Assembly (NCBI GenBank): GCA_015233115.1
Contig: JADFYJ010000002.1
Span: 111,216-175,215 of the forward strand
Direction of reading: 5' to 3'
From: Candidatus Omnitrophota bacterium
GTDB lineage: Bacteria > Omnitrophota > Gorgyraeia > Zapsychrales > Zapsychraceae
DNA: 64,000 nucleotides
A program made the translations under genes and the position numbers. Numbering within the stretch: position 1 is the first letter of the stretch; each line of letters opens with the position of its first letter. The notes below the pieces were generated by a model. That model worked only from the letters and a program-made list of their open reading frames with translations, was not told the origin of the DNA and ran no database searches. Shown piece by piece: positions 8,437 to 56,837 of this stretch.

Positions 8437-8443
8437 CTATCTT

Positions 8444-8899: not shown

Positions 8900-9046
8900 T
8901 TATTGTTAGAGTTGACCTAAATTAAATTCCTCGTGTAGTAAAACATGGGGCACAAAGTTGTATCCCAAGTTATAATCATGAGACAACAAATATATCATCT
9001 TGTTTCAAAATGTCAATATGTTTTTTATGTGTGTCCGGTGTCCAAC

Positions 9047-9099
9047 GGCGTCTGATCTCGACTAAGCTTTGGCGCCAGACAATTAATGGTCTAGACACC
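9047..9099. repeat. family D element (partial): GGCGTCTGATCTCGAC ... GGTCTAGACACC
   Basis: Shares GGYGTCAGATCTCGAC / GTCGAGATCTGACACC arms with 20068-20160 and 54784-54876; stop codon of the 1580-aa gene (CTA 9091-9093) lies in the arm. Confidence 0.55.
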
Positions 9100-33359: not shown

Positions 33360-33576
33360 AGATAACCTATATTGTTTCTCATTTTACTTCACTATTTCCT
33401 AAATTCAAGGGGAATATCAAAAACAGGGCCAAGTAAACGGTTACTGGGAAAATTGTTTAAACCTGCGGCATAAAACAAATGATTTATCGACGATAACACT
33501 CTTGAAAACTAGGTTGGCATTTCACTATTTCATCATGCTATACTCTAAGTGGGTCAAATGTTCTTTATAGATGTTA

Positions 33577-33706
33577 AAGGTAAACTACTCGAAAGAGTGG
33601 GGCCCGTGAACCATGTAAGGTTCACGGTCCTGAACCCAACGTGGTTCAGGAACAAAGCCGTGAAGCTAAAGTAATTTATTACTAAGCTTGTCTGGTTGCC
33701 GATAGG
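33577..33706 (+). ncRNA. candidate c-di-GMP-II-like riboswitch aptamer (with two inserted hairpins)
   Basis: GGTAAAC-CUACUC-GAAA-GAGUGG-G hairpin (GAAA tetraloop, 6-bp stem) then GAACAAAGCCG, a hairpin GAAGCU..AAGCUU, and 3-prime GGUUGCCGAUAGG; this parallels the recalled c-di-GMP-II aptamer GGGCAAAC-CAUUC-GAAA-GAGUGG-GACGCAAAGCC...GGGGUUACCGAUGG. Confidence 0.4.
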
Positions 33707-33787: not shown

Positions 33788-34039
33788 ATGAAAAAAATAC
33801 TGTTTATTTTTTTAATGGTTATAGGCGCGTCATATGCCTGGGCAGAAACACAAAGTTTCAATATATCCTTAACTATTCCAGCTATTATCGGCGTCAATGT
33901 ACCAATGCCCACTTATTCACCCACAGCTGACACGCTTAAACAAAACACTGAAAACAACAACGCCAGCCAGCAAATATCAACAGAATCCATTTTCAAAGAC
34001 GGGCAACAAACCATCATCAAAACAGTTATGGTAAAATAA
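33788..34039 (+). CDS. small secreted protein (83 aa), unknown function
   Basis: AAGGAG RBS 7 nt upstream of ATG; N-terminal signal peptide MKKILFIFLMVIGASYAWA; convergent with fimbria-like operon. Confidence 0.5.
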   Translation: MKKILFIFLMVIGASYAWAETQSFNISLTIPAIIGVNVPMPTYSPTADTLKQNTENNNASQQISTESIFKDGQQTIIKTVMVK

Positions 34040-34087: not shown

Positions 34088-37051
34088 TTATTTTCCTTTT
34101 AACGGCACATAAAATACATACGTTGAACCTTCTTCGATTGTTAATGACTTCTGAAGTTTGATCTTCGGCAAATAATCCAGCGGAATTGAATTTATATCAA
34201 CGCTCAAGCGGTGATTACCCGGCAATACATTTTGGAATGTGTAGGTTCCTTCCATATCCGAATAAACTGTCGTTTTACCGTCTAAGAATATCTTCACTTG
34301 ACCAATAGTTTTTTCACCTGTATCAGGTTTGCCGTTATTATTCTCATCCACAAATACCATCCCGTAAATGCTCGTGTTGGTAGAGGTGCCAAAACTCAGT
34401 AATTGGGTTTTATATGCGGCCAAATTAACGGTCTTTGTATTAGGAGTTGATAACACATACCCCGGTGGCAAAGAACCGACATCAATCGAAACAGTCACGA
34501 GTTTCGCTCTGATCTTTCCAAAATAATGTCCATTCTTATCAGTCTTGACTTGTTTGCGGCCGATCTTAATTTTGACATTGGGCAAACCAGGTTCATTATA
34601 TTCGCGGCTGCCATTTGAATTAAGGTCTTTAAACACATACCCTTCAATCCGCCCCACCGCTGTCCACGCGAATGGAGTTTCCAGAGAAGTTTTCACGCCG
34701 CCCCGCACATCCAATTCAGTATACATATGGCCGCCCGGAATCGAAGGCCACACTTTGCGTGTGCGGCCATCTAAATAAAGTTGAAAATCTTCCGATACTG
34801 AATAAGTTGAAGTAATTCCACCGTTAAAACTATCTTCCCCGGCTAAAAAACTGTTGATAGCTGCCGCGTTTTGCTCTCTCCGATAAGACACATCTAAAGC
34901 ATTGTTTAAGTGATCGCCGATCTGATTATTGTAAGATAACCCCGTCGTTAAAACGCCGGGCATAACAAATTTGCCTGTAGAAAAATTATAAATCCAGGAA
35001 TACTGATATGTGGTGTAAGAGGTTAAATCTTTTATCAACGGGACACTCATTCCCGCCGTTGTTGAATAACGGTCATAATCGGATTCATCAGAAAAACTAT
35101 ACCGGCTTTTTTGATACATTCCCTGAATATACGCGTTCATTTTTTGATTCCCCCAAATCGGAAGATATTTCGAATACGTTGAGGAATATTGAAAATTCGT
35201 GCGAGGGGAAAGCTGTTGCGGCGTAGTCGTAAAATAAATAGCCTGATTGATTGTACCATCGGTCGTAAACGGTACCACCAGCGTGGAATTAAAATCATAA
35301 TTCAGTCCATTAGGATTTTCTTCATTCGGTAAAAGCCGATCCTGAAAAGTGTCTAACGAAGCTGTCCAATTCGCATCTGTATAAGGAGTCCAATCCAATG
35401 TTAATAGCCCGCCTACCTCCCCCTGGCCTGACGGCGCACCAGTAATCGTTTTGAAATCCGGTTGAATATTCCGGTAACTGACCCCTGTTTTTAAACCATC
35501 CACTTCATAAACACTTTTTACAGTGTGGGCCGTACGGCTTTGGTCATACGCCACTTCTGCTTCATTTAAAACATTTTTAAACGTCCTAGCCTGCCCTTGC
35601 AATGAAAAAACTTTTTCTTTTAGGTTTTCATCCCGGTCCAGTCCATAGCCACGGGCATAATTAAAGGCAAGCTTGTTATCCCGTTCTGGAAATAACTCCA
35701 CTCTAGTCCCTTCAATAAACGCATCGCGTGGGTGTGTTGAGGCCTGGCCAGAGGATAACAAACCATAACTGTTTTGTTCCCGTCCCCAAAAACTGGTTAA
35801 TCCAATAGTTTTATGCAGAATTTCTCCCTTACCGGTCAACCCACGATAATTCTCTCCGGTCACAGTCAGTGGAGAGAAGGTGGTCATAGCATCGTAGCCC
35901 CGCAACTCGAGCTTTTCAAACGGATAAATTCGGGCATCAGTCAACCCGACGGTATAATACGTCGGCGGGGTCTTATCCGCGAATTTTTCCATGGTCAAAC
36001 TGCTGTCAAATTTTCCCACCGGTACTTCCCCGACCACATTAACATTATAAATTATACCTAAATTGAGTTTACGTAAATTTGAATACGACGGACCGCTATA
36101 AATAGAACTCCAATCCACAGAACTGCCTACCCGGAACGGTTTAGCAATTTGAAAAATTTGTTCCCGCTGTAACGCCATACTATTCCGGTCAAGGGGCACG
36201 ATCACGTTCACATCGAAACTCCACCGCCCTTTATTATCCCAAACATACACGATGGTCGTCCCCAAACTCACAGCCTTAACTAAAATCTGATCCCGGTCAA
36301 TCCGTTCAATTTCTAAAGAACCAGGTGAGACGACTAAAAATTTATCTATATTTTTTCCTTCTATTAAAATTGCGGTTCGAAAACTCAGGCGTAATGGCGC
36401 GTTCGGCTGATGTTTCCAAGCTTCATCGTTGAGTTTTAAAGTTGAAGAAGGTTTGACCTTCGGAGCTGGAAGTTCTTTAGCTTGTCGACCTTCGTTTAAT
36501 CCAACAGATTGAGATGGCACATCCAAAATAGGCTGAGTATTGGTTGTTTGAGCCGGAAAATTTTCTAAAGAAACAGCCGTTTGCTCTCCCTCGGCTTCAT
36601 TCAATGACTGGTTAATTAAATCCAGCCGGTTAAATGGTTTCGTCTTTTGTTCAACCGTTTGCAAGGCCTGTTGCACTTTTTGTTCGCGGGATATTTTATT
36701 TTTGATCGGAGCATGCGGAACGATCAGATAATCTAACGAAGGCGGAGCATCAGATGACTCTGCTTTATCAGACGAAATAACGACCACTTTATGATCCTGC
36801 AAACGTTTGATGAGATTGATATATTCTTTTGGTTCTGTCGTTGATGGCTCGACTAATTGTGCCTCAGAAAAATAGCGGATCGCGGAATTGTAATCTTTGC
36901 GGCCAAAAGCACTTTTACCTTTTTGAAGGCAATAAGAATACGCCATGGAATATTCGGTTGAATATCCATTATCAACAAAAGAAAAAATTAATAATATTAA
37001 GATTAAATAGAAACGGAATTTTCCCAGCATGCTGGAATTGTAACATCCCAA
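34088..37051 (-). CDS. 987-aa outer-membrane-type protein: signal peptide, secretin-N-like (pilus formation N-terminal) domain, large beta-rich region, two C-terminal CnaB/SdrD-B-type domains; candidate assembly platform/usher analogue
   Basis: Signal peptide; segment LVVSPGSLEIERIDRDQILVKAVSLGTTIVYVWDNKGRWSFDVNV matches T2SS/T3SS pilus-formation N domain pattern; Y/G/S/T/N-rich amphipathic stretch 290-790; GYVFKDLNSNGSREYNEPGLPNVKIKI and GMVFVDENNNGKPDTGEKTIGQVKIFLDGKTTVYSDMEGTYTF are CnaB/SdrD-B-like. Confidence 0.5.
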   Translation of the reverse strand: MGCYNSSMLGKFRFYLILILLIFSFVDNGYSTEYSMAYSYCLQKGKSAFGRKDYNSAIRYFSEAQLVEPSTTEPKEYINLIKRLQDHKVVVISSDKAESSDAPPSLDYLIVPHAPIKNKISREQKVQQALQTVEQKTKPFNRLDLINQSLNEAEGEQTAVSLENFPAQTTNTQPILDVPSQSVGLNEGRQAKELPAPKVKPSSTLKLNDEAWKHQPNAPLRLSFRTAILIEGKNIDKFLVVSPGSLEIERIDRDQILVKAVSLGTTIVYVWDNKGRWSFDVNVIVPLDRNSMALQREQIFQIAKPFRVGSSVDWSSIYSGPSYSNLRKLNLGIIYNVNVVGEVPVGKFDSSLTMEKFADKTPPTYYTVGLTDARIYPFEKLELRGYDAMTTFSPLTVTGENYRGLTGKGEILHKTIGLTSFWGREQNSYGLLSSGQASTHPRDAFIEGTRVELFPERDNKLAFNYARGYGLDRDENLKEKVFSLQGQARTFKNVLNEAEVAYDQSRTAHTVKSVYEVDGLKTGVSYRNIQPDFKTITGAPSGQGEVGGLLTLDWTPYTDANWTASLDTFQDRLLPNEENPNGLNYDFNSTLVVPFTTDGTINQAIYFTTTPQQLSPRTNFQYSSTYSKYLPIWGNQKMNAYIQGMYQKSRYSFSDESDYDRYSTTAGMSVPLIKDLTSYTTYQYSWIYNFSTGKFVMPGVLTTGLSYNNQIGDHLNNALDVSYRREQNAAAINSFLAGEDSFNGGITSTYSVSEDFQLYLDGRTRKVWPSIPGGHMYTELDVRGGVKTSLETPFAWTAVGRIEGYVFKDLNSNGSREYNEPGLPNVKIKIGRKQVKTDKNGHYFGKIRAKLVTVSIDVGSLPPGYVLSTPNTKTVNLAAYKTQLLSFGTSTNTSIYGMVFVDENNNGKPDTGEKTIGQVKIFLDGKTTVYSDMEGTYTFQNVLPGNHRLSVDINSIPLDYLPKIKLQKSLTIEEGSTYVFYVPLKGK

Positions 37052-43987: not shown

Positions 43988-44623
43988 TTATGTATCCAGC
44001 CTTGTCACCTTAAACTTTACTTTCCCTCCGTCCGGACACGTTGTGCCGGTTTTACAATTCGGATTTTTTTCAAACGAAAAAGTGGCACCGAAATTCATTG
44101 CGAATAAAATCGGAAATAACAAATGATAAGCCGCTCCGCAGAAGCCGTCAGGGGTTTTAAGCCCAGTGACTTCCCATTTATCTCCGACTTTGTAGCCATA
44201 ATGACAGGTATTATCACTGTATTCGACTTCGATCAGCATTTTTTTCGGTTTAGGGCCGGTGGGTTTTACTGTCTGCGGAACAACGACCACTTTGCCGTCT
44301 TTATCTAAAAGTTCGATTTTAAAAGCCATTTTCCCGCCGTCCGGACAGGTATTAATGATCGACGCGGTATTTTCCATAAATGGAAATCTGCCGCCGAACG
44401 TTAAAGCGTGCATGGCCGGAAACGCGGCATGCGCGATGCCTAAACAAAAATGTTCCGGCGCATGAGTAAAATCTTTTAAAATAAACTCATCGCCGACTTT
44501 GTAATTGTGGTAACAAAAATTATTATCATTTTTGACTACAGTAAATTTAAGTTGAGGAAAAGTCATGCCGCCTAATTTAGTATCTTTTTCTTTTTGATTT
44601 TGATGACAATTTTCTGTGCACAT
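43988..44623 (-). CDS. tandem-duplicated Cys/His-rich small domain protein (each half resembles the uncharacterised TIGR04076-type domain)
   Basis: Two ~95-aa repeats each with C-x-H-x-Y-K-V-G-D-(E/K)-(F/W) ... F-C ... A-(H/Y) ... F-G ... C-P-D-G-G-K ... F-K. Confidence 0.5.
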   Translation of the reverse strand: MCTENCHQNQKEKDTKLGGMTFPQLKFTVVKNDNNFCYHNYKVGDEFILKDFTHAPEHFCLGIAHAAFPAMHALTFGGRFPFMENTASIINTCPDGGKMAFKIELLDKDGKVVVVPQTVKPTGPKPKKMLIEVEYSDNTCHYGYKVGDKWEVTGLKTPDGFCGAAYHLLFPILFAMNFGATFSFEKNPNCKTGTTCPDGGKVKFKVTRLDT

Positions 44624-44664: not shown

Positions 44665-45915
44665 TCATTGGCCCGCTCCCATATAATTTAGTTTCTCCCA
44701 CATTATTTTAGAAATAATTTTATTACTTTTAGGGCCATAATGTACACCATCACGAGCAAAATCAAACTGATCAGGAGGTAATTTTAAAAAATCGTCCATT
44801 AAATTTAAGCAAATAATGCCCTTCTTTTCGCTCAAAGAGACCATGTCAACATATTGCCTACGAAAAAGTGGGTCAGTGGCATATTTTCTTATATCCTGCG
44901 CCGTGGGAAGATAGACCAAAATAAATTTTTTATTATCCCCGTTCGCTTCAGTATTTATCTTTTCAAATATTTTTTGTGTAACGATTATAGCTTCAGAATT
45001 ATTGTTCATCATATTTTTAAATAAATTTTTTTTCTGAAACTGACAAATTACCGTTGCCAATAATTTATAAGATATCAACCCTCCAATAAAAGGCGGAGAT
45101 TCATACTTTGCCGTAAAATATGACCGGTCATAAGCCCGAAGATAATTTTTCAGGACATCACTGCAATCAGAAAAATTATTTCGTTGTAAATCCTCATAGG
45201 TTTTATATGGTCTTGAGATCAATTCTAACTTGTTTTGCCTTACGATGAACCGGGAAAACAGCGGGTAATTTTCCCAACCGTCAAGCTGTCTTAAAACGTT
45301 AATATCTCTCCATAAATCCAAGCCTGGAACAAAAACCAACACAGCCACATCATAGTCAATTTTATTTCGTAAATTTTCATATCTCAAAAACGACTGGCCC
45401 ATGCTGTAACCATCCACGCCCAAATTTACAAATTCTAAATTATCGCTTTTTTGGTTGAGAAAAAAAGGCCAGGTTTCCTCTTGAGGAACTCGGCTACAAT
45501 TGGTGAATGAATCACCAAAAATTATAATCCTTTTTTTGCCAGGCAATATATTTTTCGATATATCTTCTCTGGCCCGCGCTCCCCAATTATTGGATTGCCA
45601 CCAGCCGTTACGTGATACCGCGTTTTCAACTGGAACAAAACCCAGAACCGGGTCTTCTTTCAAAATACCCCACAAATCACCTTTGGTCATTTGCTGACCA
45701 TCGACAACCCAGCCCACTGCCAGTTGATCATAATCAGCCTGAAATTTATCGCCAAAAGTTATCTTAAACGGAGGCAATTCTTTACCCCAAAGCACCCCGT
45801 AACACTTCGGCGATGGCTTAATAAACGGTCTGGTTCCAAGTTCAAATATCAATAAAAAAAGAAATATTGAACTGACAGCCAAAATGATATTTTTAGAAAT
45901 TTTCATTTTTATCAA
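44665..45915 (-). CDS. membrane-anchored SGNH hydrolase/acyltransferase-like protein (AlgX/AlgJ-like)
   Basis: N-terminal TM anchor; SGNH blocks: IIFGDSFT (block I Ser), NLGVDGYS (block II Gly), DGVHYG (block V Asp/His). Confidence 0.5.
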   Translation of the reverse strand: MIKMKISKNIILAVSSIFLFLLIFELGTRPFIKPSPKCYGVLWGKELPPFKITFGDKFQADYDQLAVGWVVDGQQMTKGDLWGILKEDPVLGFVPVENAVSRNGWWQSNNWGARAREDISKNILPGKKRIIIFGDSFTNCSRVPQEETWPFFLNQKSDNLEFVNLGVDGYSMGQSFLRYENLRNKIDYDVAVLVFVPGLDLWRDINVLRQLDGWENYPLFSRFIVRQNKLELISRPYKTYEDLQRNNFSDCSDVLKNYLRAYDRSYFTAKYESPPFIGGLISYKLLATVICQFQKKNLFKNMMNNNSEAIIVTQKIFEKINTEANGDNKKFILVYLPTAQDIRKYATDPLFRRQYVDMVSLSEKKGIICLNLMDDFLKLPPDQFDFARDGVHYGPKSNKIISKIMWEKLNYMGAGQ

Positions 45916-46014: not shown

Positions 46015-46533
46015 TTAATCTTTTAACGAGCGAAACCATTTGATCATCATTTCTGATAAAATCTTCTGCTCTGTCCCAGATAATTTATCCGTAATCTCTT
46101 TCATGGTTTTCATATACTCAGGCCAGGCCTGATCCAAAATCTGCGCCCCGCGTTTTGATATCCGCGCGACTTTAATTCTACGGTCTCCATCTCGGCCAAA
46201 CCGTTCGATTAATTTTTCCCGTTCCAATTTATCCAGAAGCCGCGTCATATTCGACGCTGTTACCATTAGACGCTTCCCTATTTCCATCTGGCTTAAGCCT
46301 TCCTGCCCCCCCTGATGTTTAATAATCATCAGCACGTTCATCTTGGCAGGAGTTAAGTCGAAAGTATCCAAAGTTTTAGCGACTTTGTCAAAAAGCACAG
46401 TATAAACCAGCACCAGCCCGTAAAAGGCTTCTTCATAATATCTGCCCTTCCCTGCTTCTATGCCAAATGCCTGTAAGTCGTCCATAGGTCCATCTCCATT
46501 TCTAAATAAAGCATAATATACAATAGTTGACAT
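46015..46533 (-). CDS. MarR family transcriptional regulator
   Basis: winged-HTH region LTPAKMNVLMIIKHQGGQEGLSQMEIGKRLMVTASNMTRLLDKLEREKLIER. Confidence 0.75.
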   Translation of the reverse strand: MSTIVYYALFRNGDGPMDDLQAFGIEAGKGRYYEEAFYGLVLVYTVLFDKVAKTLDTFDLTPAKMNVLMIIKHQGGQEGLSQMEIGKRLMVTASNMTRLLDKLEREKLIERFGRDGDRRIKVARISKRGAQILDQAWPEYMKTMKEITDKLSGTEQKILSEMMIKWFRSLKD

Positions 46534-46583
46534 GTCAACTAATTTATTTGCTATCCAATTCTCAAATGCTATTCCCCTTTACC

Positions 46584-48116
46584 CTACTGAGACGATTTTG
46601 ATTTTTGCTTGACAGATGATACATTATCCTGCGGCATCAGCGCTTCCGAAGTATTAAATTCAGCCGTTTTAAATTGCGCCACCATATTCCGCAAAGCCTC
46701 AGCCTGAGCTGCCATTTGTTCAGCTGACGCAGCCAACTCTTCCGCAGAAGCAGCATTAGCTTCTGTGATTGAGGTATTTTGTTCCGTAGCCGCAGCCTGT
46801 TCTTGAGTCGCGTCGGCAATGTTTTGTAATTCCTGGGCTATTTTTTTAACATTCGCAATGATCGTTATGGTAGTCTCAGCCGCAGCTTGCGAAACCTGCA
46901 CTCCGCAATTAACCTGTTTAAAATTTTCTTTCAACAAATTTCTAATATCTTTAGCGGATGCCGCGCTTCTTTCTGACAATTTTCTGACCTCATCCGCGAC
47001 TACGGCAAAACCTTTGCCATATTCCCCAGCACGCGCCGCTTCAATAGCAGCGTTCAAAGCCAACAAATTAGTCTGTTCCGCGATATCCGTAATAAGATTA
47101 GCCGCTACAGCCATTTGCTTGGAGCCTTTCTCAATCACCCCCATAGCATCAATCGTATTATCCATAGCTTGTTCATTTTTACCTGCTTCTTTGAATACTT
47201 CCTGAGCCGTATGATTCGCTATTTTCGCATTATCCGCGTTTGTCTGCACCGAAGCGGCCAACTCTTCAAAACTCGCTGACTGTTGCTGTGCCCCATCGGA
47301 TATCTGCTGTGATCCACCTGAAACCTCTCCAGACACAGACAAAAGCTGTTCCGCGGAGGAACGAATGCGCGTAATGATCTCTCCTATCTTCTTGACAAAA
47401 ACATTAAACCGTGACGCCAATTCACCCATTTCATCTTTTGAATTTGTCTCAATAGACGTGGAAAGATCACCCGTGCTCAGCTGATCAGCAAACTCACCCA
47501 TTCGTAAAATTGGTTTCATGATCAACCGGTTGAATAATATAAAAATCGCTCCAATCACGATCAGGATCACGATAATTTGAAATGATCCGATCTTCACCAT
47601 ACTTTGCATCATCTCATCCAAACTGGACTGATAAGAAATCGTCATACTGGTAGCCGCGATGACCTCACCCTCTTTAGCGCTGGTGTGGCAGGAAAGACAC
47701 GCTTTGTTTATTATGATTGGCACAACCCTGCGTATACCCCTAAGTTTATTGATGCGGTCTTCCCTGGTTATTTCTTTTCCAGTCTGCAAAACTTTTTTGT
47801 CAATATCATCCTGGGGCTCCCGCCCTTCTTTCTTTCCCACTTCATCATTAAGGGCCGAACTTCTTATAATCCTAAGCTCCTCAACTGACTTAAATTGACG
47901 GGCTTTATCTATATACCCATCCAAAGCTGGCTGCTGACCGCTAGCCATGAAACTATACACAGCTTCTTGAACCGAACTGGATAAATTAGTAACCCCAATG
48001 GTCGCTTGGTGTACCGTCGTTCTGTAGAATGAAAAAACTGTCCAAGTTATCCCCACCCCTAAACCAGCCAACAAAACCGCCGAAATAGTCAGCATAAATT
48101 TTGTTTTTATTTTCAT
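46584..48116 (-). CDS. methyl-accepting chemotaxis protein (TM sensor, HAMP, MCP signalling domain)
   Basis: Highly conserved MCP core [38 protein letters not shown]; start trimmed to MKIKTKF (ATG 48116, GGAGAGAA RBS). Confidence 0.85.
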
Positions 48117-48135
48117 ATTTTCTCTCCTGCTGTAG

Positions 48136-50241
48136 TTACCATTTGATGTCAACATCCAGCCACATAACATGTGCGCTGTAATTTCCGGTTTCAACTGATT
48201 GATAGGTCCGAAACGCGTAATAAGCATATTTCGGTTCAATAATTATATTTTTCGTCACGGTCCATTTCGCTCCAACCTGGGCATCGTACCATTCATCGTC
48301 TGGAGAATAAAGAAACGCCGAATTATTCGTCACATAATTATTGTTTCCGTTTTCCGCGCGAGAATACTCTGAAGTCTGAAATATGCTAAAATTATCCGTT
48401 GGCGCATAACTGGTGCTAAAAGCCAAAGTATTAACATTGGCCGTAGTTACAGGCAGATAAACTGTTGAGTTAGAAGCAAATTGACTGGCCGGCGTTGAGG
48501 TCTTAAACAACTGTAATGAATAGGATGCGGTAAACATCCACGCATCCGTCGGAAAAATCGTCAATCCATAAGTAAAATCCCTCTCCATCTGCTGAGTCTT
48601 AACCATATTTTGGGCCGCATATTGTGTATTAAATACTGTGCCTGCCGTGCGGACCCGAAAAGAATTCTCGAACCATTTGAGCGGCTTCCAAGTCAAGCGC
48701 GCCGCCATCGAATCTTCAATGTTGCGAAGCACATTTAAATCTGCTTCGGTTGAAGGATTTTCTACTACTGTATCCAATTTATCATTTTTGACACCATGTT
48801 TGTATTCTAGATTGGCACTGACGGATTTAATAGGCGTAATGCGCGCCCCAATTGTTCCTGCCATTTCAGGAGCATGATTAATAACATCATGATAAACATC
48901 ACCGCCAACGACATTAGTATTCAAGGTATCCTCTCCTTTATAAATGCGGCGGTACAATGATTCCCAATTACGATTCTGCTCCATATCAAAATCAGCATAT
49001 AAACTCGTACGTGAAAAACCAGTATATTTTAAAGAAAAATTTTCAGCCCCGCCAGTGATCTTGTTCTCACTGGTCCCGTCGTAGTAATAATTAGCAGCCC
49101 CATTGGGAGAAACACCCGCGGCTCCGAGAGAACTACAATTTGAATTAGCCGGCCCGCAGTCAATACCCTGTGTCGATATACCGTTGGTATTAACCATTTC
49201 CATTTTAATTTTACTGCCAAAACTTAAATTCCGCGTAAGATTAGTCACCAAATTCCCGGTCCAAATATTAGAATCCTGAATATTCCTACCCCAGCCATTT
49301 TTATTAGCAGGCCGCGAATAATTCCAAAGAGTTCCATTTACCATATACTCTCTAAGATACTCGATCTGACTATCTCTTAAATGAGCAAAACGATACCCCA
49401 AAGACAAATATGTCTGGTCATTAAGCATCCAACGGTCAGCCAGCCAAGTTGAAGTTAAAGATTTCGTCTGAGTATCAAGAGACTGAGCACGCCATTTATT
49501 GTCCGTCGAAGGGGTGATCATGTCCGTGTAATAGGACTGTTCCTGACGAGAACGGTTCGACTGAAAAAATCCATAAGACTGCTTCGCTTTAACCGTAAAA
49601 CCCATGACCTCCGCTTTATTTTTTAGACTAACGGTATCCGTAGTTTCTTCATTATTCCCCCAAGACGGTCCTGTATACTTTGTCACATTGGCTTTAACCG
49701 CAGTCCAGGTCAAATGATCTTCTGATCCTTTTTTAATATCTCTATCATATTCCGCTGAACACGTCGATTCACCAGGGATACCATTTCCGATTTCTAACGC
49801 AAAATAACCAACATCAAGATGCAAGTCTTGGTTAAGCTGAATCAATTGCAAGCTGGGAGTGGTATACGGATAATACCCTCCGGAATTATCAAAATATTGG
49901 CGGAAAGATTTATATTTTGTTTGAATAAAACCGATATGATCTTTGGTGATGAGCACAGAACCGTCATTATCGTTTACATTGGGAACTGAACGGCCTTCAA
50001 TAAAAATATGGGTATCTTTGCTGACCTTGGTGCCTATGTTTAAAGCATTGATTCCGTAAGAATAGCCGTCATTCAACCAATTAATGGCGCGGAATTTGGA
50101 TACGTCTCCCTTGACCTCCACAATTTGCAATGGCATTAAATCCATTGAAACAGAATTTTGCGCCCATGCACACACCGTCCATCCTATCGAGATGAAGCCA
50201 AGAATGACACCCCATATTCTTTTAATAATCGGCATTTGCAT
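48136..50241 (-). CDS. large outer-membrane beta-barrel protein, MtrB/PioB-like by size and context
   Basis: 701 aa, signal peptide [32 protein letters not shown]-rich alternating pattern, C-terminal ...DVDIKW aromatic terminus; 13 nt downstream of multiheme cytochrome gene. Confidence 0.45.
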
Positions 50242-50254
50242 ATATTTTTTTCGT

Positions 50255-51034
50255 TTAATATTTTAATGCTTTATCAAAATTTGATCCATGTACCGCCGTA
50301 TGACAGCCGCCACTGTAACATGTTTCCCCCATGCGTGATGTATGTCCGGAAACTGCGCCTATGAATCCCGCAGAGTAATTAGTCTGCATGTGACAACGTA
50401 AACACAAGTTAGCATCCCGGACCAACAACATTTTTTCATGAATTGACCCATGCACCTTATGACAAACTGTACAGCCCTCTCGCAAAGCAGCATGTTCATA
50501 AACAAAAGGTCCTTCCTGGTCTTTATGGCACTTGAAACACAATTGATTGGGTTCTTCCATCGATGTGGCAGACGGAGTAATATCAGGACCGTGACAATCG
50601 TGACAGTCAGAACAGCTGATTTTTCCTTCCATGACCGGATGATGATACGGCAAACGGAATTCTTGTTTTTTATCCGCATGACAATTAAAACAAATCCGAG
50701 GATCTTTTCGGGGATTGATAATATTATTTTTCTGATCCGAATTTTCTGCGTGAACACTCCCCGGACCGTGACACATCTCACATCCCTGGCTGGCTCCGCC
50801 TTCATCAGCTTTCAAATTCAACTTATAATGCGGCGAAAGCGCGCAGTCACGGCCTTCCTTCTCATGGCAAGTCAAACAAGCTTCAGAGCCGGCATAGGTT
50901 GCGCCTTTAACAAAAGTCAGCGGCCCCTGAATCATCTCCGTCGCTTGGGCAAGCATTGGCTGTGCAGTTAAAAACAAAAAAAACATTACCGCCATTCTTA
51001 TAAAATTAAAATAAGCACTTCTCCCCAATGTCAT
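50255..51034 (-). CDS. periplasmic multiheme c-type cytochrome (7 CxxCH plus one CxxxxCH)
   Basis: CLTCH, CEMCH, CFNCH, CSDCH(DCH), CFKCH, CTVCH, CLRCH, CYSGGCH; signal peptide MAVMFFLFLTAQPMLAQA; start trimmed to avoid overlap with upstream gene. Confidence 0.8.
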   Translation of the reverse strand: MTLGRSAYFNFIRMAVMFFLFLTAQPMLAQATEMIQGPLTFVKGATYAGSEACLTCHEKEGRDCALSPHYKLNLKADEGGASQGCEMCHGPGSVHAENSDQKNNIINPRKDPRICFNCHADKKQEFRLPYHHPVMEGKISCSDCHDCHGPDITPSATSMEEPNQLCFKCHKDQEGPFVYEHAALREGCTVCHKVHGSIHEKMLLVRDANLCLRCHMQTNYSAGFIGAVSGHTSRMGETCYSGGCHTAVHGSNFDKALKY

Positions 51035-51041
51035 ACTTTGA

Positions 51042-51359
51042 TTATTTCTTTTCTTCAGTCTTGGCTGGTTTAAAATCTTCAATCTTACCTATTTTTTTAA
51101 ACGTCTCACCCGTTGGATCAGGATTTTCTTTTATGACTGCTTTGCCATAATCATTCAACTCGTGTTTACCATCATCCTTTGACGGCTTTTCGTCCATATG
51201 ACAATCCAGACATTTTACCTTCGCGTCAGGAAACGCTTCGCGGTACATCTTGATATCCTTTAAACGGGCTTGAGCCGTCACAGCGTACAGGATCAATCCT
51301 GCCGCCCCCAATATCCCAAAACAAACCATGATCAAAAAACGCTTTTGCCCTTTTTTCAT
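51042..51359 (-). CDS. membrane-anchored monoheme c-type cytochrome
   Basis: 105 aa, N-terminal TM helix, single CLDCH. Confidence 0.7.
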   Translation of the reverse strand: MKKGQKRFLIMVCFGILGAAGLILYAVTAQARLKDIKMYREAFPDAKVKCLDCHMDEKPSKDDGKHELNDYGKAVIKENPDPTGETFKKIGKIEDFKPAKTEEKK

Positions 51360-52927
51360 TTTCTCCCCCTTGCTTTACGCGCAAACACAAAGAATAAAAA
51401 ACTTGCTTCAACCAGCAAAAAATAAATAATCCAGATCAAGCCGCCCGAACCCGCGCCATAACTATGAAGCCCGCGGCCTAATAAAAAATTAACGCCGTAC
51501 CAAGTCATCAAAACTAAAATAAACCCTAATATTCCTGAAACAGCCAAACCAAAATTAGTTAATTTTTTGCTATAACGTAAATGCAATATGGTCATGTAGC
51601 CGAGAAACGTAATAAACGCCCACGTCTCCTTGGGATCCCAGCCCCAAAATCTTCCCCACGCTTCATTCGCCCATATTCCGCCAAGAATTGTGCCTGCGCC
51701 CAGCAAAATCAACCCCAACTGTAAAAGACGGTTAATGGATTGAGCAGATAACTGATCTTCCTGTTCTGTCAATTTGCCGCTTGCGGCGAGAAACAAATGC
51801 CGGTGAGAAACCGCCATGGCAAAGGCGAACATACTGTAACTGGAAACGATGGTGATAACGTGCACAGTCAGCCAATAACTACTGCGTAATACCGGAGACA
51901 CCACATCCAATGACTGATCTACGGGAAGCAAATTAGCGTAAAGCATAATCATGGCACTCACAATAGCGCCGCTGGAAAGTAAAGAGCGGCGTTTCTGCCA
52001 AATGACAAAAATTCCCACGCAGAGCATAAGCACCCAATTCATGAAAATCATTGTCTCATACATGTTGGCCACCGGCGGACGCAATAAAATTAACGCGCGC
52101 AATAATAATCCAACAGAATGATAAATAAACCCCAAAACAATTAACCAGTTGCCCCACACTTGGCCCGCAGGTTTCCTCCCCAGAATAAAAATGAAACCCA
52201 ATAAATACAGGATACCGGCAAAAAGAAACGGCTGAAGAGAATAATAAAGCGCTTCTAACCTAACCCTGACAGCCTGCCCTTTTCCCAACACTCTATCCGT
52301 CCCTGCTATCCATTGCCGGATTTCCTCGCCGGCTTGTGGAGCCTTATCCGAATAATCGCTCACCAATTTCTGAAAAGCCAAAGACTGCCCTTCATGACCG
52401 AGATAGGGCGATGTCCAAACTCCACCGTTAACCGCAGGGATCACAGTCAAAATATCCGTACTACTCAAACGTCCAGTCATTTGCAATCGTTGATAAAGCA
52501 CTTCCGCTTTCTGTTCCATGACAGATGGACGGTTGTCTTTCCCACGCTTTTCATTTGCACCGGCAGCCAAAACTTCAATGGCATGAAAGAAAGGCTTCAA
52601 CTCTTTAAACGAAAAAAAGTTCCGCTCCCCTTCAATCCCCAGAGTCTTTTTAAGACCCAGGTGGTCAACACGAATAAAAGGAATATCTAAAAACTGCTGA
52701 CTATGCTCCGAATTGACCAAGAGCAAATTCAAAGCACTTTGACCATGCCAGTGTTTTTTACCACTGATAAATTGCAATGTTTCCTGCGCAAACGCAGCCA
52801 AAGGTTTTATCCGGCCATGATTCTGAATCGGAATCCTGCCCCCGTCCCGGTCCAAATTAACTGCGTATGCTGACGAAATCGATAAAAAAGACAACAGAAC
52901 CGCAAAAAAAACTACGGATTTTTTCAT
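51356..52927 (-). CDS. ccsA: cytochrome c biogenesis protein CcsA (System II) with extended N-terminal periplasmic region
   Basis: WWD domain WGRFWGWDPKETWAFITFLGY and conserved His; 523 aa. Confidence 0.8.
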   Translation of the reverse strand: MKKSVVFFAVLLSFLSISSAYAVNLDRDGGRIPIQNHGRIKPLAAFAQETLQFISGKKHWHGQSALNLLLVNSEHSQQFLDIPFIRVDHLGLKKTLGIEGERNFFSFKELKPFFHAIEVLAAGANEKRGKDNRPSVMEQKAEVLYQRLQMTGRLSSTDILTVIPAVNGGVWTSPYLGHEGQSLAFQKLVSDYSDKAPQAGEEIRQWIAGTDRVLGKGQAVRVRLEALYYSLQPFLFAGILYLLGFIFILGRKPAGQVWGNWLIVLGFIYHSVGLLLRALILLRPPVANMYETMIFMNWVLMLCVGIFVIWQKRRSLLSSGAIVSAMIMLYANLLPVDQSLDVVSPVLRSSYWLTVHVITIVSSYSMFAFAMAVSHRHLFLAASGKLTEQEDQLSAQSINRLLQLGLILLGAGTILGGIWANEAWGRFWGWDPKETWAFITFLGYMTILHLRYSKKLTNFGLAVSGILGFILVLMTWYGVNFLLGRGLHSYGAGSGGLIWIIYFLLVEASFLFFVFARKARGRK

Positions 52928-54717
52928 GAAACTTTCCTTTCATTAAAATGAATCAACGCTCCTATACACGCGATTAACGAGCTCAGGTAAATCCAAGGAA
53001 TACCCGGATTCTTGGCTACAGTAAATACAGAGGCCTTACCATTTTTGGGATCATCAAAATACGAAGATTGAAAAATTTTAAACCCAGCATAATTTAACGG
53101 CTGATTCATACTAATGGTCCTTTCCAACGTTACGCCTTGAGTTGAATCATGCAATACCACATCACTTTCAAACGACGCGGCATCCTGTGTGCCGGGATAA
53201 TTTATCTTGCGGAATTGTTTTAATACAATTGAAAAAGGAAGCTCACGCATTTCATGCGATAGGAAAAAATTAACCGTGCCCTGATCTACCGCGACCGGTG
53301 TCAGCTGATTTTCAATAACCCAATAAAGATCCTTTGTTCCGGCACGCTCCACAGTTACGGCAACAGCCATAGGAGCATCCGGGTCAGAAGAAGGCGCAAT
53401 ATTATAATTAACCCGGGCATGAGATATAATTTTCTCTGCCGAAAACTCCAGGTTCATATATCCTGTAGAAAATGTGCGGCCCAAAATTAAATTTCCCTGT
53501 GCCGTCACCTTACCTTGAAATTTAACCTGATAACGCCACGCGCCGCTGTTGTCAAAATAAAACACAATCTGCCCGCCGCTATAAACATCTGGATAATCTT
53601 CCGGTTTTCCAGCCGCAAATTTAACTTGAATATCCGTCAAAGAAGAAGAAACTCTCTTGTCAGCTTTATCATGCATCGCTTCAAATTCCGGAAAAAATCC
53701 AAACTTTAACTGATGAAATACATTGCCCTGACTATCAACCAAATCAAATTCCACTGCCGGATTAAACATCCTGCCATTAGGTAAATTCACAATCTTATTA
53801 TGACCAGCTACAGCAGCAAAAGGATAATAAACGAAATTTTTAACCGAATACCCGGTGTTTTGCAACGGCAAGACAGCAGGAACAACTTTTTCCGGATCTA
53901 TCGCCAAAAGCTCTTGGCCAGATTTATCCAAAATCCGTAATGTTGGCCGTTGAGCTGGCTCTATCTTTTTATCCGGCCGCAAATTCAGTTTAACCGGGCC
54001 AACCATCTGTTCAGAACCTGCCGCAGAAGCAGGATTACCCGGCTCATGCTCAAACAACCAAATTGACTCATCAACGTCAAGCTGTTGACTAAATAACTTC
54101 ACCGAGACCGCGCGATTCACCTCTCCATTAGGATTTCCCTCTGTCACGAGTTTTTTTTCCATGGCATGTTCAAAAATATTAGTGATACAAAAAGGAACCC
54201 TCTCTCCCTCCTGCTCTACTCCAATATTTTTCTTTGGCTTAAGTGGACAATAAAGCTCCGTTGAATTCCTACGTTCCCTGTTCAAAACCAAATAAGAATT
54301 TTTTTGGGACAAAAGGAAAGATTCCTGCTCCTGATTAGGATAATTCACGGATAAAAGATGGCCTGACTGCTCCATCCGGCTTGCAGTTTCCCCCTCAAAA
54401 ATAACCATATTTCCATCAATACCATAATATTTACTAATCATGGCGCCGATTAGAATGCCGAGAATACCGATATGCGTAATCACAAAACCCAGATACTCTT
54501 TTTTATACGGAAAACGGACCAATGTTGAGCACAAAATATTGACCCATAACAAAACCATTAAAAAATCAAACCAACGGGTCTGATAAAAAACTTTTTGGGC
54601 AAACGGCGTCCCATAAACTGCCTCCATCGACGTGGAGACAATTAAAAGCACAATCAAACCCGCGCTAATAACCACAGTGAAACCGACAGAGCCTAATTTT
54701 TTAATTATAAAATTCAT
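52924..54717 (-). CDS. ccsB: cytochrome c biogenesis protein CcsB/ResB (System II)
   Basis: 597 aa, ResB-like N-terminal TM pair and large periplasmic domain, translationally coupled to ccsA. Confidence 0.75.
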   Translation of the reverse strand: MNFIIKKLGSVGFTVVISAGLIVLLIVSTSMEAVYGTPFAQKVFYQTRWFDFLMVLLWVNILCSTLVRFPYKKEYLGFVITHIGILGILIGAMISKYYGIDGNMVIFEGETASRMEQSGHLLSVNYPNQEQESFLLSQKNSYLVLNRERRNSTELYCPLKPKKNIGVEQEGERVPFCITNIFEHAMEKKLVTEGNPNGEVNRAVSVKLFSQQLDVDESIWLFEHEPGNPASAAGSEQMVGPVKLNLRPDKKIEPAQRPTLRILDKSGQELLAIDPEKVVPAVLPLQNTGYSVKNFVYYPFAAVAGHNKIVNLPNGRMFNPAVEFDLVDSQGNVFHQLKFGFFPEFEAMHDKADKRVSSSLTDIQVKFAAGKPEDYPDVYSGGQIVFYFDNSGAWRYQVKFQGKVTAQGNLILGRTFSTGYMNLEFSAEKIISHARVNYNIAPSSDPDAPMAVAVTVERAGTKDLYWVIENQLTPVAVDQGTVNFFLSHEMRELPFSIVLKQFRKINYPGTQDAASFESDVVLHDSTQGVTLERTISMNQPLNYAGFKIFQSSYFDDPKNGKASVFTVAKNPGIPWIYLSSLIACIGALIHFNERKVS

Positions 54718-54783
54718 GTTTACTATTTTATATATAAAAATTAATAAAAAGCGTTAATTTTAGATTTTTTAACTCTAATATAT

Positions 54784-54876
54784 GGCGTCAGATCTCGACC
54801 ACGAAACCGCTTGTTAACCTCAATAACACGGTGCTCCCCCAAACCCGGCTCAAATGCTGCGTCGAGATCTGACACC
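54784..54876. repeat. family D element: GGCGTCAGATCTCGAC - 61 nt - GTCGAGATCTGACACC
   Basis: Perfect 16-nt inverted arms; right arm supplies last codons and stop of antiporter gene. Confidence 0.7.
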
Positions 54877-56316
54877 AGCATTGAGCGCGGCAAAATCTTG
54901 ATCATTGGCCAGCACCAACAAAACGTCGCCGCCTTCAATAATCATGGAACCATCGGGAATAATAAATTTGTCTTCACGGGAAATCAATACGATCAAACAT
55001 TTGATAGGCACGTTCAGTTCAAATATTCGTTTACCAGCTGCCGCGGAATTATACGGCACGATCAGATCATTTAATGACGCGTCAATCCCTTCTGTACGTT
55101 CAAACTCCAGCGGATAAACCCGCGTACTATCGCCAGGAACCGCTACTTTCAACCATTGGGCTACAGCATGAATAGATGCCCCCTGCACCAGCACGGAAGT
55201 TATGACGACAAAAAAAACGATATTAAAAATCATTTCTGCCTGAGGCACATGGGATAATAAAGGAAAGGTGGCTAAAATAATCGGGACAGCTCCTCGTAAA
55301 CCCACCCATGAAATCATGGTTTTCTCAACCCAGTCAAATTTAAACGGAAATAAACAAATAAACATGCTGATCGGACGGGCTAAAAATATTAAAACAAACG
55401 CGATCAACAAACCGCTTCCAATAACGGGAATAATATGCGACGGAAAAACCAGCAGTCCTAAAGTTAAAAACATCATGATCTGCATCAGCCAAGCAATACC
55501 GTCATGAAAACGCATGATCGATTTTTTCTGCACAAAATCATGGTTACTCATAACCAGACCCACAACATACACAGCCAAAAATCCGTTTCCCTTTAAAATC
55601 GCCGCTATAGCGTAAGTCAAAAGTACCAAAGACATAGTCAGAACCGGATAAAGACCGCTGTATTCCAGCTTCAACCAGTTGATAATTGTGATGATTAACT
55701 GCGCCATCAAAAATCCCACTAACGCGCCCATGCCCATATCCAAAACAAACATCGGCAATAAATTGACAACCGCGACATTATGCTGCATCAAAATCCGAAT
55801 AAAACCAATGGTTAAAAAAACTGACATGGGATCATTACTACCAGATTCCAATTCTAACAACGGGGTCAGATTGCCTTTCATGCTCGTTTTTTTTGATCTC
55901 AGAATAGTAAATACGGCGGCAACATCCGTGGAAGATACAATAGAACCCAAAAGCATCCCTTCAATCAACGAGAATTTCAAAAGCAAAACCGCGGACGCGC
56001 CTACAATAATCGCTGTCAATAATACGCCAAGGGTGGAAAGCACAAAACCTGGAAATAAAATAGGCCTGACACGTTTCCAATTCGTGTTTATCCCACCTGA
56101 AAAAATAATGAATATGAGAGCCACAATCCCAATGGATTTAGCCAGCCAAGGATCGGAGAAGGCAATCTTGCCTATCCCTTCTGATCCAGCCAGCATCCCA
56201 ATCCCTAAAAATACCAATAACGCAGGAACGGAAAGCCGGTCAGAAAGTTTACTGGCAAAGACGCTCAAAAGTGTCAAAACTGCGGCAGATAAAATTATTT
56301 GTTCAATAGGCGGCAT
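54850..56316 (-). CDS. K+/H+ antiporter, CPA1 (NhaP2-type) with C-terminal TrkA-C/RCK_C domain
   Basis: 488 aa, ~12 TM, N-terminal MPPIEQIILSAAVLTLLSVFASKLSDRLSVPALLVFLGIGMLAG typical of NhaP2/CvrA; C-terminal soluble RCK_C-like segment. Confidence 0.75.
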   Translation of the reverse strand: MPPIEQIILSAAVLTLLSVFASKLSDRLSVPALLVFLGIGMLAGSEGIGKIAFSDPWLAKSIGIVALIFIIFSGGINTNWKRVRPILFPGFVLSTLGVLLTAIIVGASAVLLLKFSLIEGMLLGSIVSSTDVAAVFTILRSKKTSMKGNLTPLLELESGSNDPMSVFLTIGFIRILMQHNVAVVNLLPMFVLDMGMGALVGFLMAQLIITIINWLKLEYSGLYPVLTMSLVLLTYAIAAILKGNGFLAVYVVGLVMSNHDFVQKKSIMRFHDGIAWLMQIMMFLTLGLLVFPSHIIPVIGSGLLIAFVLIFLARPISMFICLFPFKFDWVEKTMISWVGLRGAVPIILATFPLLSHVPQAEMIFNIVFFVVITSVLVQGASIHAVAQWLKVAVPGDSTRVYPLEFERTEGIDASLNDLIVPYNSAAAGKRIFELNVPIKCLIVLISREDKFIIPDGSMIIEGGDVLLVLANDQDFAALNAGVRSRRSI

Positions 56317-56331: not shown

Positions 56332-56763
56332 TCAATTGATAGTTGGGCAGGTAGCTGCCGACGCGCATGTAGGAATGTTCATAGTATTATCCATTGTAAG
56401 CGTGTAAGTTACACCTCCTGAAGTCACTGTTGCTATACAAGTATATGTAGAGTAAGGCGCGGCGCTGGTATACTGATAAGCAATATGTGAATCATTGGTA
56501 AGCACGACATGTAAATTCGTATTAAAATAATTAATGTCCGTCGCGTCTCCCCCTGGATTAGTAGGCAAGAATCCATTTTCATTCGCCCTGTACAATCTAT
56601 TAGCTTCATTGATCATTTTTAAATTGCTGACTGCTTCGTTTATATAAGCATAATTATATTTTCTGGAAAAATTCGGAATGGTAATTGAGGCTAAAATACC
56701 CATAACCACTATCGTAATCATAATCTCTGTAAGGGTAAAACCTTTTGAAATTCTCATAATCAT
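56332..56763 (-). CDS. prepilin-type N-terminal cleavage/methylation domain protein (type IV pilin or pseudopilin)
   Basis: MIMRISKG-FTLTEIMITIVVMGILASI class III signal; AGGAG RBS before ATG 56763. Confidence 0.6.
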   Translation of the reverse strand: MIMRISKGFTLTEIMITIVVMGILASITIPNFSRKYNYAYINEAVSNLKMINEANRLYRANENGFLPTNPGGDATDINYFNTNLHVVLTNDSHIAYQYTSAAPYSTYTCIATVTSGGVTYTLTMDNTMNIPTCASAATCPTIN

Positions 56764-56837
56764 CCTTTCTCTAATTCTCCTAATAAAGTATAACATTTTC
56801 AATTTTTTTGTATATAATATTGGCAATAATTTTATCT

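Follow-up and report, generated by a model that had tools for sequence, protein, structure and literature searches.

A candidate trans-outer-membrane electron conduit of divergent MtrAB type, encoded beside a heme-c chemoreceptor in Candidatus Omnitrophota

Do members of the Omnitrophota have the means to move electrons across their outer membrane, and if so, in which direction would those electrons flow? The question is raised by seven closely packed open reading frames (ORFs) on the minus strand of a Candidatus Omnitrophota contig, which we confirm at positions 46015-54717 of the 64-kb stretch of DNA that was analysed (hereafter the window). An initial annotation had proposed that these genes encode a porin-cytochrome conduit that, in the manner of PioAB and MtoAB, does without a surface decaheme cytochrome. 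That proposal is now supported, both core parts being homologous to those of known conduits and their genes being paired in relatives without exception (21 of 21 contigs, see below). We consider it probable that the operon specifies a trans-outer-membrane electron conduit of a divergent Omnitrophota branch of the MtrAB/MtoAB/PioAB lineage. The seven contiguous genes, including those for a methyl-accepting chemotaxis protein (MCP) and a MarR-type regulator downstream, all lie where the annotation had placed them, and the features of the locus are as follows.

46015-46533, minus strand: MarR-family transcription regulator of 172 amino acids (PF12802 and PF01047).
46584-48116, minus strand: MCP whose PAS-like sensor domain in the periplasm bears a heme-c motif, CLSCH (HAMP, MCPsignal and PF21563).
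48136-50241, minus strand: 701-amino-acid predicted outer-membrane 26-strand beta-barrel, remote MtrB/PioB homolog (AlphaFold2, Foldseek and hhalign).
50255-51034, minus strand: octaheme cytochrome predicted to be periplasmic, a shortened wire of MtrA/DmsE/MtoA type (eight heme sites; match to 6r2q_A).
51042-51359, minus strand: small monoheme c-type cytochrome of 105 amino acids (mature form about 74) from an unannotated family (signal peptide and CxxCH).
51356-52927, minus strand: CcsA, System II heme lyase/heme channel, 523 amino acids (PF01578 and a WWD-type motif).
52924-54717, minus strand: ResB/CcsB, System II cytochrome c maturation, 597 amino acids (PF05140).
54718-54849, strand not applicable: AT-rich intergenic stretch 5' of resB, presumed promoter region of the operon (inspection of the sequence).

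The 701-residue protein begins with a signal-peptide-like segment ending in AWA before a Q, and its C-terminus reads DIKW. An AlphaFold2 model built from 13 sequences (predicted local distance difference test score, pLDDT, 76.5; predicted template-modelling score, pTM, 0.67) contains 26 long strands as assigned by DSSP, a predicted number equal to that of MtrB, whose barrel of 26 strands encloses the 10 MtrA hemes (PMC8415449). When the model was compared with the Protein Data Bank (PDB) using Foldseek, the top match was MtrB itself (6r2q_B, E 2e-13, template-modelling scores 0.63/0.67); the corresponding scores were about 0.4 for 22-strand TonB-dependent receptors and about 0.2 for the 26-strand LptD, on which basis we rejected an identity of either kind. 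Alignment by hhalign of 127 barrel-family sequences with 30 MtrB/PioB sequences gave a probability of 99.2% and an E-value of 1.4e-19 over 595 columns, in register from N- to C-terminus; an alignment to a single MtrB sequence was weak and out of register (65%) and was discarded in favour of the profile-profile comparison. Sequence searches of the PDB with profiles of 13 and later 127 barrel sequences did not return MtrB, and the only matches of these profiles were to a cytochrome domain that is fused to some relatives (PccH, 4rlr; hydrazine synthase). The mature N-terminal region of the window barrel contains no cysteine and hence lacks the CxxC of the MtrB consensus. An N-terminal CxxC is a signature of MtrB from metal-reducing gammaproteobacteria, and PioB and MtoB are also without it. 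Because the 26-strand model, the top structural match and the full-length profile alignment all point to MtrB, we place the barrel with MtrB/PioB, and as judged from sequence it is a remote full-length homolog that lies outside the limits of the curated families. The earlier description of an MtrB/PioB-like outer-membrane barrel therefore acquires both full-length remote homology and a predicted 26-strand fold.

The family to which the barrel belongs is large and almost unlabelled. A word-indexed search yielded no more than 10 relatives of full length; those that bear a name are called 'hypothetical protein' and derive from metagenome-assembled genomes (MAGs) of Candidatus Omnitrophica, one of them being 100% identical to the window protein. 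An exhaustive profile search of metagenomes returned at least 1,058 cluster representatives at 50% identity, 466 of them at E<=1e-30. Two architectures occur, one of about 690 amino acids and the other of about 800 with an N-terminal PSCyt1 monoheme domain (37 of the 61 members sampled), and weak matches to PF11854 are seen in 4 of those 61 (best E 6.6e-5). We also note that identities to the window differ from gene to gene. Among the related contigs (given L numbers here), L020 shows 73% for CcsA, 69% for the octaheme protein, 74% for the MCP and 38% for the barrel (L020 2632-4680), and L004 shows 57% for CcsA, 55% for the octaheme protein and 53% for the barrel (L004 10001-12091). That the barrel is out of step with its neighbours suggests either allele exchange or fast divergence of a surface-exposed barrel.

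The second core part is the multiheme cytochrome. Its longest ORF runs from 50255 to 51082 (275 amino acids), the likely start being the ATG at 51034, and it carries seven CxxCH motifs and one CYSGGCH. The initial annotation had counted the hemes correctly: the eight sites are invariant across six orthologs, the eighth appearing either as CxxxxCH or as plain CxxCH, and an overlapping CHDCH that is confined to the window sequence and unconserved in homologs is not a ninth site. The protein is indeed shorter than the decaheme MtrA and PioA, the number of sites being kept at eight in all homologs. Its closest relative of solved structure is MtrA (PDB 6R2Q chain A, E 1.3e-32). As a reference we used the mtrCAB cluster of a Photobacterium replicon, which scores 392 bits against TIGR03507, 322 against TIGR03508 and 551 against TIGR03509; the octaheme protein is 28% identical to the MtrA of that cluster (E 3e-27), and its hemes 1-8 align, with matching spacing, to hemes 3-10. 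Because of this alignment we read the octaheme protein, on sequence grounds, as an MtrA-type wire that is without the two entry hemes on the periplasmic side; in Shewanella, it is heme A1 of MtrA through which electrons enter from the periplasm (PMC8415449). The octaheme protein also reaches 167 bits against NF041028, below the cut-off of 325. We rejected an NrfB-type partner of a nitrite reductase, the matches to NrfB being weaker than those to MtrA/DmsE by 25-40 orders of magnitude, and the alternatives that the annotation had feared, an unrelated porin and a cytochrome of the nitrite- or hydroxylamine-reductase families, did not emerge from any of these comparisons.

The arrangement of these genes is conserved. 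We collected 22 distinct related contigs, 20 of which are labelled Omnitrophota or, in third-party annotation assemblies, 'uncultured Planctomycetales', the other two being one from Verrucomicrobiia and one that carries a fused variant of the barrel. The octaheme gene lies directly 5' of the barrel gene in 21 of the 21 that hold upstream sequence, the octaheme gene is itself preceded by one or two copies of the monoheme gene in 18, and ResB-CcsA genes are found directly upstream of the monoheme gene in eight and 1-6 kb upstream in two more. Because this gene order holds down to a barrel identity of about 28-36%, we regard monoheme, octaheme and barrel as the core unit.

What might the monoheme protein contribute to such a unit? 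The annotation had described it as anchored in the membrane by a transmembrane helix, which is probably wrong, since the N-terminal segment resembles a Sec-type signal peptide whose terminal A-x-A (AQA in the window) is common to 35 homologs. After cleavage about 70 residues would remain, probably as a soluble protein in the periplasm, although a 20-residue hydrophobic stretch in the window protein leaves some doubt on its solubility. Within the 35 homologs C50xxC53H54 is invariant, H66 is nearly so and a C-terminal GKIEDFK is conserved; bar one evidently spurious label, these homologs are unlabelled or 'hypothetical', and none contains a Pfam domain. The window protein has no Pfam or NCBIfam match even at E<=10, a profile of the family finds no cytochrome in the PDB, and a Foldseek search with a model of the protein (pLDDT 70) returned nothing. 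In the relatives of about 800 amino acids, the barrel carries at its periplasmic N-terminus a fused PSCyt1 monoheme domain (L010 6264-8663 and L011 3049-5448), and in the one such locus examined (L010/L011) the octaheme gene is followed by the PSCyt1-barrel gene and a separate monoheme gene is absent. An alignment of the monoheme and PSCyt1 families by hhalign (68%) covers the heme-motif region only. Because of this split and fused pattern, reminiscent of a Rosetta stone, the comparison argues that the monoheme cytochrome acts at the periplasmic end of the barrel. We note in addition that the fused relatives, of about 800-900 amino acids, come from Roseibacillus (Verrucomicrobiota) and one Omnitrophica MAG (proteins P0034-P0111) and are annotated merely as 'c-type cytochrome domain-containing protein', and that L010 encodes a cupredoxin-like/Big_7 protein after the barrel and an octaheme protein with a lipobox-like ANSC.

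The genes at the upstream end of the locus provide for heme attachment. ResB matches PF05140 above the cut-off (E 1e-24), and CcsA, which has an N-terminal extension of about 260 amino acids, matches PF01578 above the cut-off (112 bits), contains the WWD-type motif WGRFWGWDPKE and scores 161 bits against TIGR03144, below the cut-off of 187.6. The presence of a System II ccsA/ccsB pair directly upstream of the cytochromes, noted at the outset, is thereby confirmed. In the entire window only three ORFs bear a CxxCH motif, and all three are in this module; ResB-CcsA would attach periplasmic heme to these three substrates encoded downstream, namely the monoheme protein, the octaheme protein and the sensor of the MCP.

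The last of these substrates had not been recognized, the CxxCH of the MCP having gone unmentioned in the initial annotation. The longest MCP ORF is 46584-48239, and the start is almost certainly the ATG at 48116 (MKIKTKF...), which is common to the L020 homolog. The CLSCH motif lies in a periplasmic domain between two transmembrane helices, which is followed by HAMP and MCPsignal domains. The match to PF21563 (Mcp40H-20_sensor) is marginal, at 28.2 bits just above the gathering cut-off of 27, and residues 42-163 align end-to-end with the sensors of Geobacter GSU0935 and GSU0582 (3b47/3b42, E about 0.004), with the heme motif in register, CLSCH standing opposite CQSCH. It is plausible that this sensor is a third CcsBA substrate of the operon and a redox or ligand sensor. 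Because the sensor is of the heme-c type, like those of GSU0582 and GSU0935, the earlier suggestion of redox taxis gains independent support, and the chemoreceptor most likely reports the redox state of the periplasm or environment and would steer the cell toward or away from substrates.

It is possible, and we give the view appreciable if minority weight, that the cytochrome-barrel conduit is real and that the MCP and MarR genes are mere neighbours, there by chance or through a need for CcsBA-attached heme, so that taxis and conduit form no unit. Of about 22 genomes, just two, those of the window and of L020, have an MCP gene after the barrel gene, which counts against a taxis-conduit unit; other genomes hold other genes at that position (ImcH, hydrogenase, tetratricopeptide-repeat or heme-biosynthesis genes), and two metagenome scans with the sensor domain gave no further examples, only generic matches to the MCP signalling domain. 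The tie of the MarR gene to the module is one of position only. Nevertheless, the MCP gene is on the same strand as the barrel gene and separated from it by 19 nt, its sensor is of a redox-active heme-c type, and the L020 ortholog downstream of the barrel (on a contig that ends inside the MCP) is 74% identical to the window MCP when the two barrels are only 38% identical, so that the adjacency has been retained.

Transcription of the module would run in the order ResB, CcsA, monoheme, octaheme, 701-residue barrel, MCP and MarR. Because neighbouring genes either overlap by 4 nt or are separated by gaps of 13-50 nt (13 nt between octaheme and barrel, 50 nt between MCP and MarR), it is plausible that the seven form one operon. 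The plus-strand ORFs across the module are antisense shadows, and GC skew is strongly negative throughout. Scans for consensus promoters found fewer sites than in shuffled sequences and did not locate a promoter; terminator-like sites were slightly more frequent than in shuffles (17 versus 9.4) and mostly intragenic, and no terminator was located. Searches of the module for direct and inverted repeats gave nothing meaningful save one imperfect inverted repeat of 38 nt 5' of resB (54762-54799 / 54861-54898), with a perfect 13-nt core (GTCAGATCTCGAC / GTCGAGATCTGAC). The repeat covers the 3' end of a K+/H+ antiporter gene and the AT-rich stretch upstream of resB, in which one of its arms lies, and could be a terminator, an attenuator or a regulator site.

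How, then, would such a conduit work? The comparisons above show that both core parts are homologous to known ones, and they establish the predicted fold, the conservation of heme sites and gene order, and the type of the MCP sensor domain; that the cytochrome sits within the barrel, what the monoheme protein does, which way electrons run and to or from what substrate, and whether MarR regulates the module, we infer. The octaheme protein would be threaded inside the 26-strand MtrB-like barrel so that its hemes would span the outer membrane as an insulated wire, and the soluble monoheme cytochrome would stand at the periplasmic mouth of the barrel, either docked as an entry heme or acting as a shuttle from an inner-membrane quinol oxidase to the wire. 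Because no MtrC-like surface cytochrome is encoded in the window, acceptors or donors in solution or colloidal form, such as chelated iron, humic quinones and mineral surfaces, would make direct contact with the wire at its outer end. Electrons would move outward, as a means of anaerobic disposal to Fe(III) or humics. MtrAB-type conduits are intrinsically reversible, and we favour outward over inward flow by a modest degree, because of ImcH-type neighbours and anaerobic markers in the relatives.

The ImcH-type gene lies directly after the barrel gene in L001 (12082-13596) and L019 (2211-3725), within the cluster in L027 (7574-9067) and beside hemA upstream in L006 (2323-3822) and L008 (2438-3937). 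The proteins, of 497-504 amino acids, have three N-terminal transmembrane helices, one CX3CH adjoining the membrane domain and six CX2CH, the ImcH-type assignment being a match of architecture with the helices judged by eye. ImcH itself, for which this architecture is described, is reported only from Fe(III) reducers and is regarded as a quinol oxidase (Zhong and Shi, PMC6295460). The same study lists three ImcH homologs in Candidatus Omnitrophica and states that no mtrAB adjoins imcH (PMC6295460), a statement that the occurrence of an ImcH-type gene beside an MtrAB-type module in these relatives contradicts. The anaerobic markers are NrdD/NrdG and an [FeFe]-hydrogenase with its maturases in L001 and L004. 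Additional cytochromes with 9 and 11 hemes are encoded in L019 and L027 (at L019 4205-5815 and within the L027 cluster, 3994-9877), as are a lipoprotein-like protein with four hemes and a second protein with eight; NrfC/NrfD-like subunits are encoded in L006, and heme-biosynthesis genes at several loci. In L006 (12167-22076) and L008 (13307-21830) the module sits inside a heme-biosynthesis island that amounts to one large locus for cytochrome production, with hemA, hemC, hemD/cobA, hemB, radical-SAM Ahb-like genes, NirD/L-like regulators and hemL.

The same conduit could work in the opposite sense, bringing electrons into the periplasm from Fe(II) outside the cell or from minerals in reduced form, as has been proposed for MtoAB-MtoD and PioAB, with the monoheme protein as an MtoD-like periplasmic shuttle; we consider this possible, if rather unlikely. 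The order in L001 of monoheme, multiheme, barrel and membrane quinone-interacting cytochrome mirrors the order of the mto genes, mtoD-mtoA-mtoB-cymA/mtoC. Inward flow is also consistent with the lack of the MtrB-consensus N-terminal CxxC in the barrel, with the fact that several hosts are magnetotactic bacteria of redox-gradient sediments, and with the absence of an MtrC-like surface cytochrome from the window, as in PioAB and MtoAB (PMC6344600). However, the inner-membrane cytochrome that adjoins the module in relatives is of the ImcH type, known only from Fe(III) reducers (PMC6295460), the neighbouring genes of relatives suggest an anaerobic, fermentative metabolism, the monoheme protein has no detectable relation to MtoD in sequence or fold, and genes for a terminal oxidase or reverse electron flow were not seen in the window.

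An improbable variant is that the conduit is assimilatory, its reduction of Fe(III) outside the cell providing the Fe(II) that magnetosome formation, with its large demand for iron, requires in magnetotactic Omnitrophota. Two relatives, MBPbin6 and Cal1bin1, are indeed magnetotactic Omnitrophota with magnetosome gene clusters, and two others, nCal2bin1 and nXXbin4, come from a later survey of magnetotactic bacteria; neither survey mentions cytochromes. The Candidatus Omnitrophica MAG that encodes a barrel identical to that of the window has a locus-tag series that appears to match these surveys, which suggests that the window's own genome is magnetotactic. Yet many of the Omnitrophota MAGs that contain the module come from groundwater, lakes and glacier streams and have no reported magnetosomes, and it also occurs, fused or unfused, in Verrucomicrobiota; no Feo, other iron-transport or mam genes were seen beside it, and the adjacency of ImcH in relatives points to a coupling with respiration. 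Among those ORFs of the window that were scanned, none was a magnetosome, Feo or che gene, and outside the module the scanned part is housekeeping.

Least likely of all, and largely refuted, is the view that there is no conduit, with the barrel serving as a common porin for substrates, or as a receptor, and the octaheme cytochrome as an NrfB-like periplasmic carrier for a soluble reductase, for which one might cite the barrel's lack of a family match and the weak NrfB-type matches of the cytochrome, but which is hard to square with the far stronger MtrA/DmsE matches, the full-length profile alignment of the barrel to MtrB/PioB, a structural match to MtrB far above those to TonB-dependent receptors or LptD, the strict pairing of octaheme and barrel genes across genomes and the absence of an adjacent gene for a catalytic reductase.

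Several observations weigh against the reading of the module as an outward conduit of the MtrAB lineage. The barrel has no Pfam match at E<=10, PF11854 included, and no NCBIfam match at E<=0.01, so that the comparison with TIGR03509 proposed in the initial annotation gave no match; confidence in the model on which the strand count depends is moderate at a pLDDT of 76.5. The companion comparison of the cytochrome with TIGR03508 (DmsE/MtrA) came out divided, the match being significant (E 9e-46, 156.4 bits) but falling under the curated cut-off of 192.2. The electron transfer chain is incomplete as far as the 64-kb window goes, neither an inner-membrane quinol oxidase nor a surface cytochrome being encoded there. 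The ccsBA genes may be the general maturation system of the genome rather than the module's own. Lastly, the Fe(II)-oxidizing Mto cluster is built in the same way, as a two-part conduit accompanied by a small monoheme cytochrome, which argues for inward flow.

If the module is nevertheless an electron conduit of this lineage, as we think probable, several consequences follow. Omnitrophota are widespread, uncultured and mostly anaerobic, with a poorly known energy metabolism, and a conserved Mtr-type conduit would let them, magnetotactic members included, respire iron minerals and humics or exchange electrons with them. The 'novel' porin-cytochrome clusters of the Planctomycetes-Verrucomicrobia-Chlamydiae (PVC) superphylum would be deep relatives of MtrAB and not independent inventions, and surveys of extracellular electron transfer (EET) probably under-count the barrel family, members of which are missed by the MtrB/PioB and DmsE/MtrA models that annotation pipelines rely on. 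The split and fused forms of the monoheme partner would amount to a natural experiment on the entry of electrons into wires of this kind. A more far-reaching idea, which we regard as doubtful, is that the Omnitrophota module amounts to a redesign of the Mtr wire, in which a detachable monoheme protein, separate in Omnitrophota and fused to the barrel N-terminus in Verrucomicrobiota, replaces the two periplasmic hemes of MtrA, and in which a heme-c chemoreceptor is wired to the conduit in magnetotactic Omnitrophota; were it true, the cell would sense the redox state of the very pool of electrons, extracellular or periplasmic, that it respires, an 'electro-taxis' complementing magnetotaxis.

Other features of the window deserve brief mention. 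A type IV pilin-like protein with a PF07963 N-terminal methylation motif is encoded 1.6 kb upstream of resB (56332-56826, minus strand); its mature part, of about 135 amino acids, contains 10.4% F/Y/W with a largest aromatic gap of 23 residues, values close to the limits that have been given for 'aromatically dense' pili (bioRxiv 10.1101/668343). Directly 3' of MarR lie a duplicated Cys-rich protein of the TIGR04076 family (43988-44623, minus strand) and a 416-amino-acid protein with weak similarity to SGNH/GDSL esterases (44665-45915, minus strand); a GDSL lipase is also found downstream of the module in L001. Farther away, between minus-strand genes, the plus strand holds at 33569-33703 a riboswitch of the c-di-GMP-I class (RF01051; 43.7 bits, gathering cut-off 35). 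It is followed by an 83-amino-acid ORF with a signal-peptide-like N-terminus (33788-34039, plus strand), and the adjacent gene (34088-37051, minus strand) encodes a 987-amino-acid protein with SdrD_B and pilus-N-terminal domains. Together with a 1306-amino-acid signalling protein of Cache, four PAS, GGDEF and EAL domains (21207-25127, minus strand), the riboswitch indicates c-di-GMP signalling in the host as predicted from its genes.

How does this module compare with the systems already described? With the MtrCAB core of Shewanella (PDB 6R2Q) it shares an MtrA-homologous wire whose eight hemes align one-to-one with the C-terminal eight of MtrA, a predicted 26-strand barrel homologous to MtrB and a gene order in which the cytochrome comes first. 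It differs from that system in having eight hemes rather than ten, the two N-terminal, periplasm-proximal ones being missing; in having no mtrC; in a barrel only about 13% identical that falls outside TIGR03509 and PF11854 and has no N-terminal CxxC; in its extra monoheme partner; and in its use of System II maturation, not Ccm. In dispensing with a surface decaheme cytochrome, the two-component conduit resembles MtoAB-MtoD-CymA/MtoC of Sideroxydans and Gallionella and PioAB of Rhodopseudomonas, and the Mto cluster likewise includes a small monoheme and a membrane quinone-interacting cytochrome, in the order seen in L001. MtoA and PioA, however, are decahemes within TIGR03508, the monoheme protein is unrelated to MtoD (4xxl) in sequence and fold, so that the likeness is only positional or functional, and the membrane partner in the Omnitrophota relatives is of ImcH type, not CymA or MtoC.

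Closest in description are the 'novel porin-MHC' (multiheme cytochrome) clusters of freshwater Verrucomicrobia, in which the gene for a porin of at least 20 strands neighbours that for a cytochrome of the periplasm having eight heme sites (He et al. 2017, PMC5615132), and the similar EET3 and EET4 clusters of peat Verrucomicrobiota (bioRxiv 10.64898/2026.05.27.727921). These have been presented as non-homologous to, or divergent in sequence from, Mtr and the porin-cytochrome complex (Pcc) (PMC5615132; bioRxiv 10.64898/2026.05.27.727921). They share with our module a large porin gene next to that of an eight-heme-site periplasmic cytochrome, within the PVC superphylum, and our barrel-family search reaches proteins of Verrucomicrobiia and Roseibacillus with the same octaheme neighbour; they differ from it in that the Omnitrophota barrel is unfused and has a separate monoheme gene, with ccsBA adjacent and, in the window, a heme-binding MCP. 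The Omnitrophota module and the published Verrucomicrobial clusters probably form one clade, a likeness drawn from descriptions and not from locus tags.

The Pcc of Geobacter (OmaB-OmbB-OmcB) also pairs an octaheme periplasmic cytochrome with a porin, in organisms that have an ImcH-type quinol oxidase, yet it possesses a dodecaheme surface lipoprotein, and we set it apart on published descriptions of OmaB and OmbB. Pcc is reported to be non-homologous to Mtr (PMC6344600), whereas our module is homologous to Mtr, and no surface multiheme lipoprotein is found among the CxxCH-bearing ORFs of the window. The relatives of about 800 amino acids recall Cyc2 in fusing an N-terminal monoheme domain to an outer-membrane barrel. 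Cyc2, of about 400-550 amino acids, forms a far smaller barrel and does not require a multiheme wire inside it; the fused relatives, in contrast, have a 26-strand barrel and an octaheme partner, and the window barrel is unfused. The window MCP, for its part, resembles the Geobacter GSU0582 and GSU0935 sensors in having a periplasmic domain of the same length, two flanking transmembrane helices, an aligned CxxCH, and HAMP and signalling domains, although the similarity in sequence is weak. To our knowledge, no genomic coupling to an outer-membrane conduit has been described for those Geobacter proteins.

Our literature search found no paper on this module in Omnitrophota, and FeGenie-based surveys report iron-cycling genes in Omnitrophica in general terms only. 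Porin-cytochrome conduits, and the eight-heme form of the PVC superphylum, already have precedents, and this limits the surprise. What is new is the deep homology to MtrAB shown here, the monoheme partner that comes split or fused, the adjacency of ImcH and the link to taxis in hosts that are probably magnetotactic.

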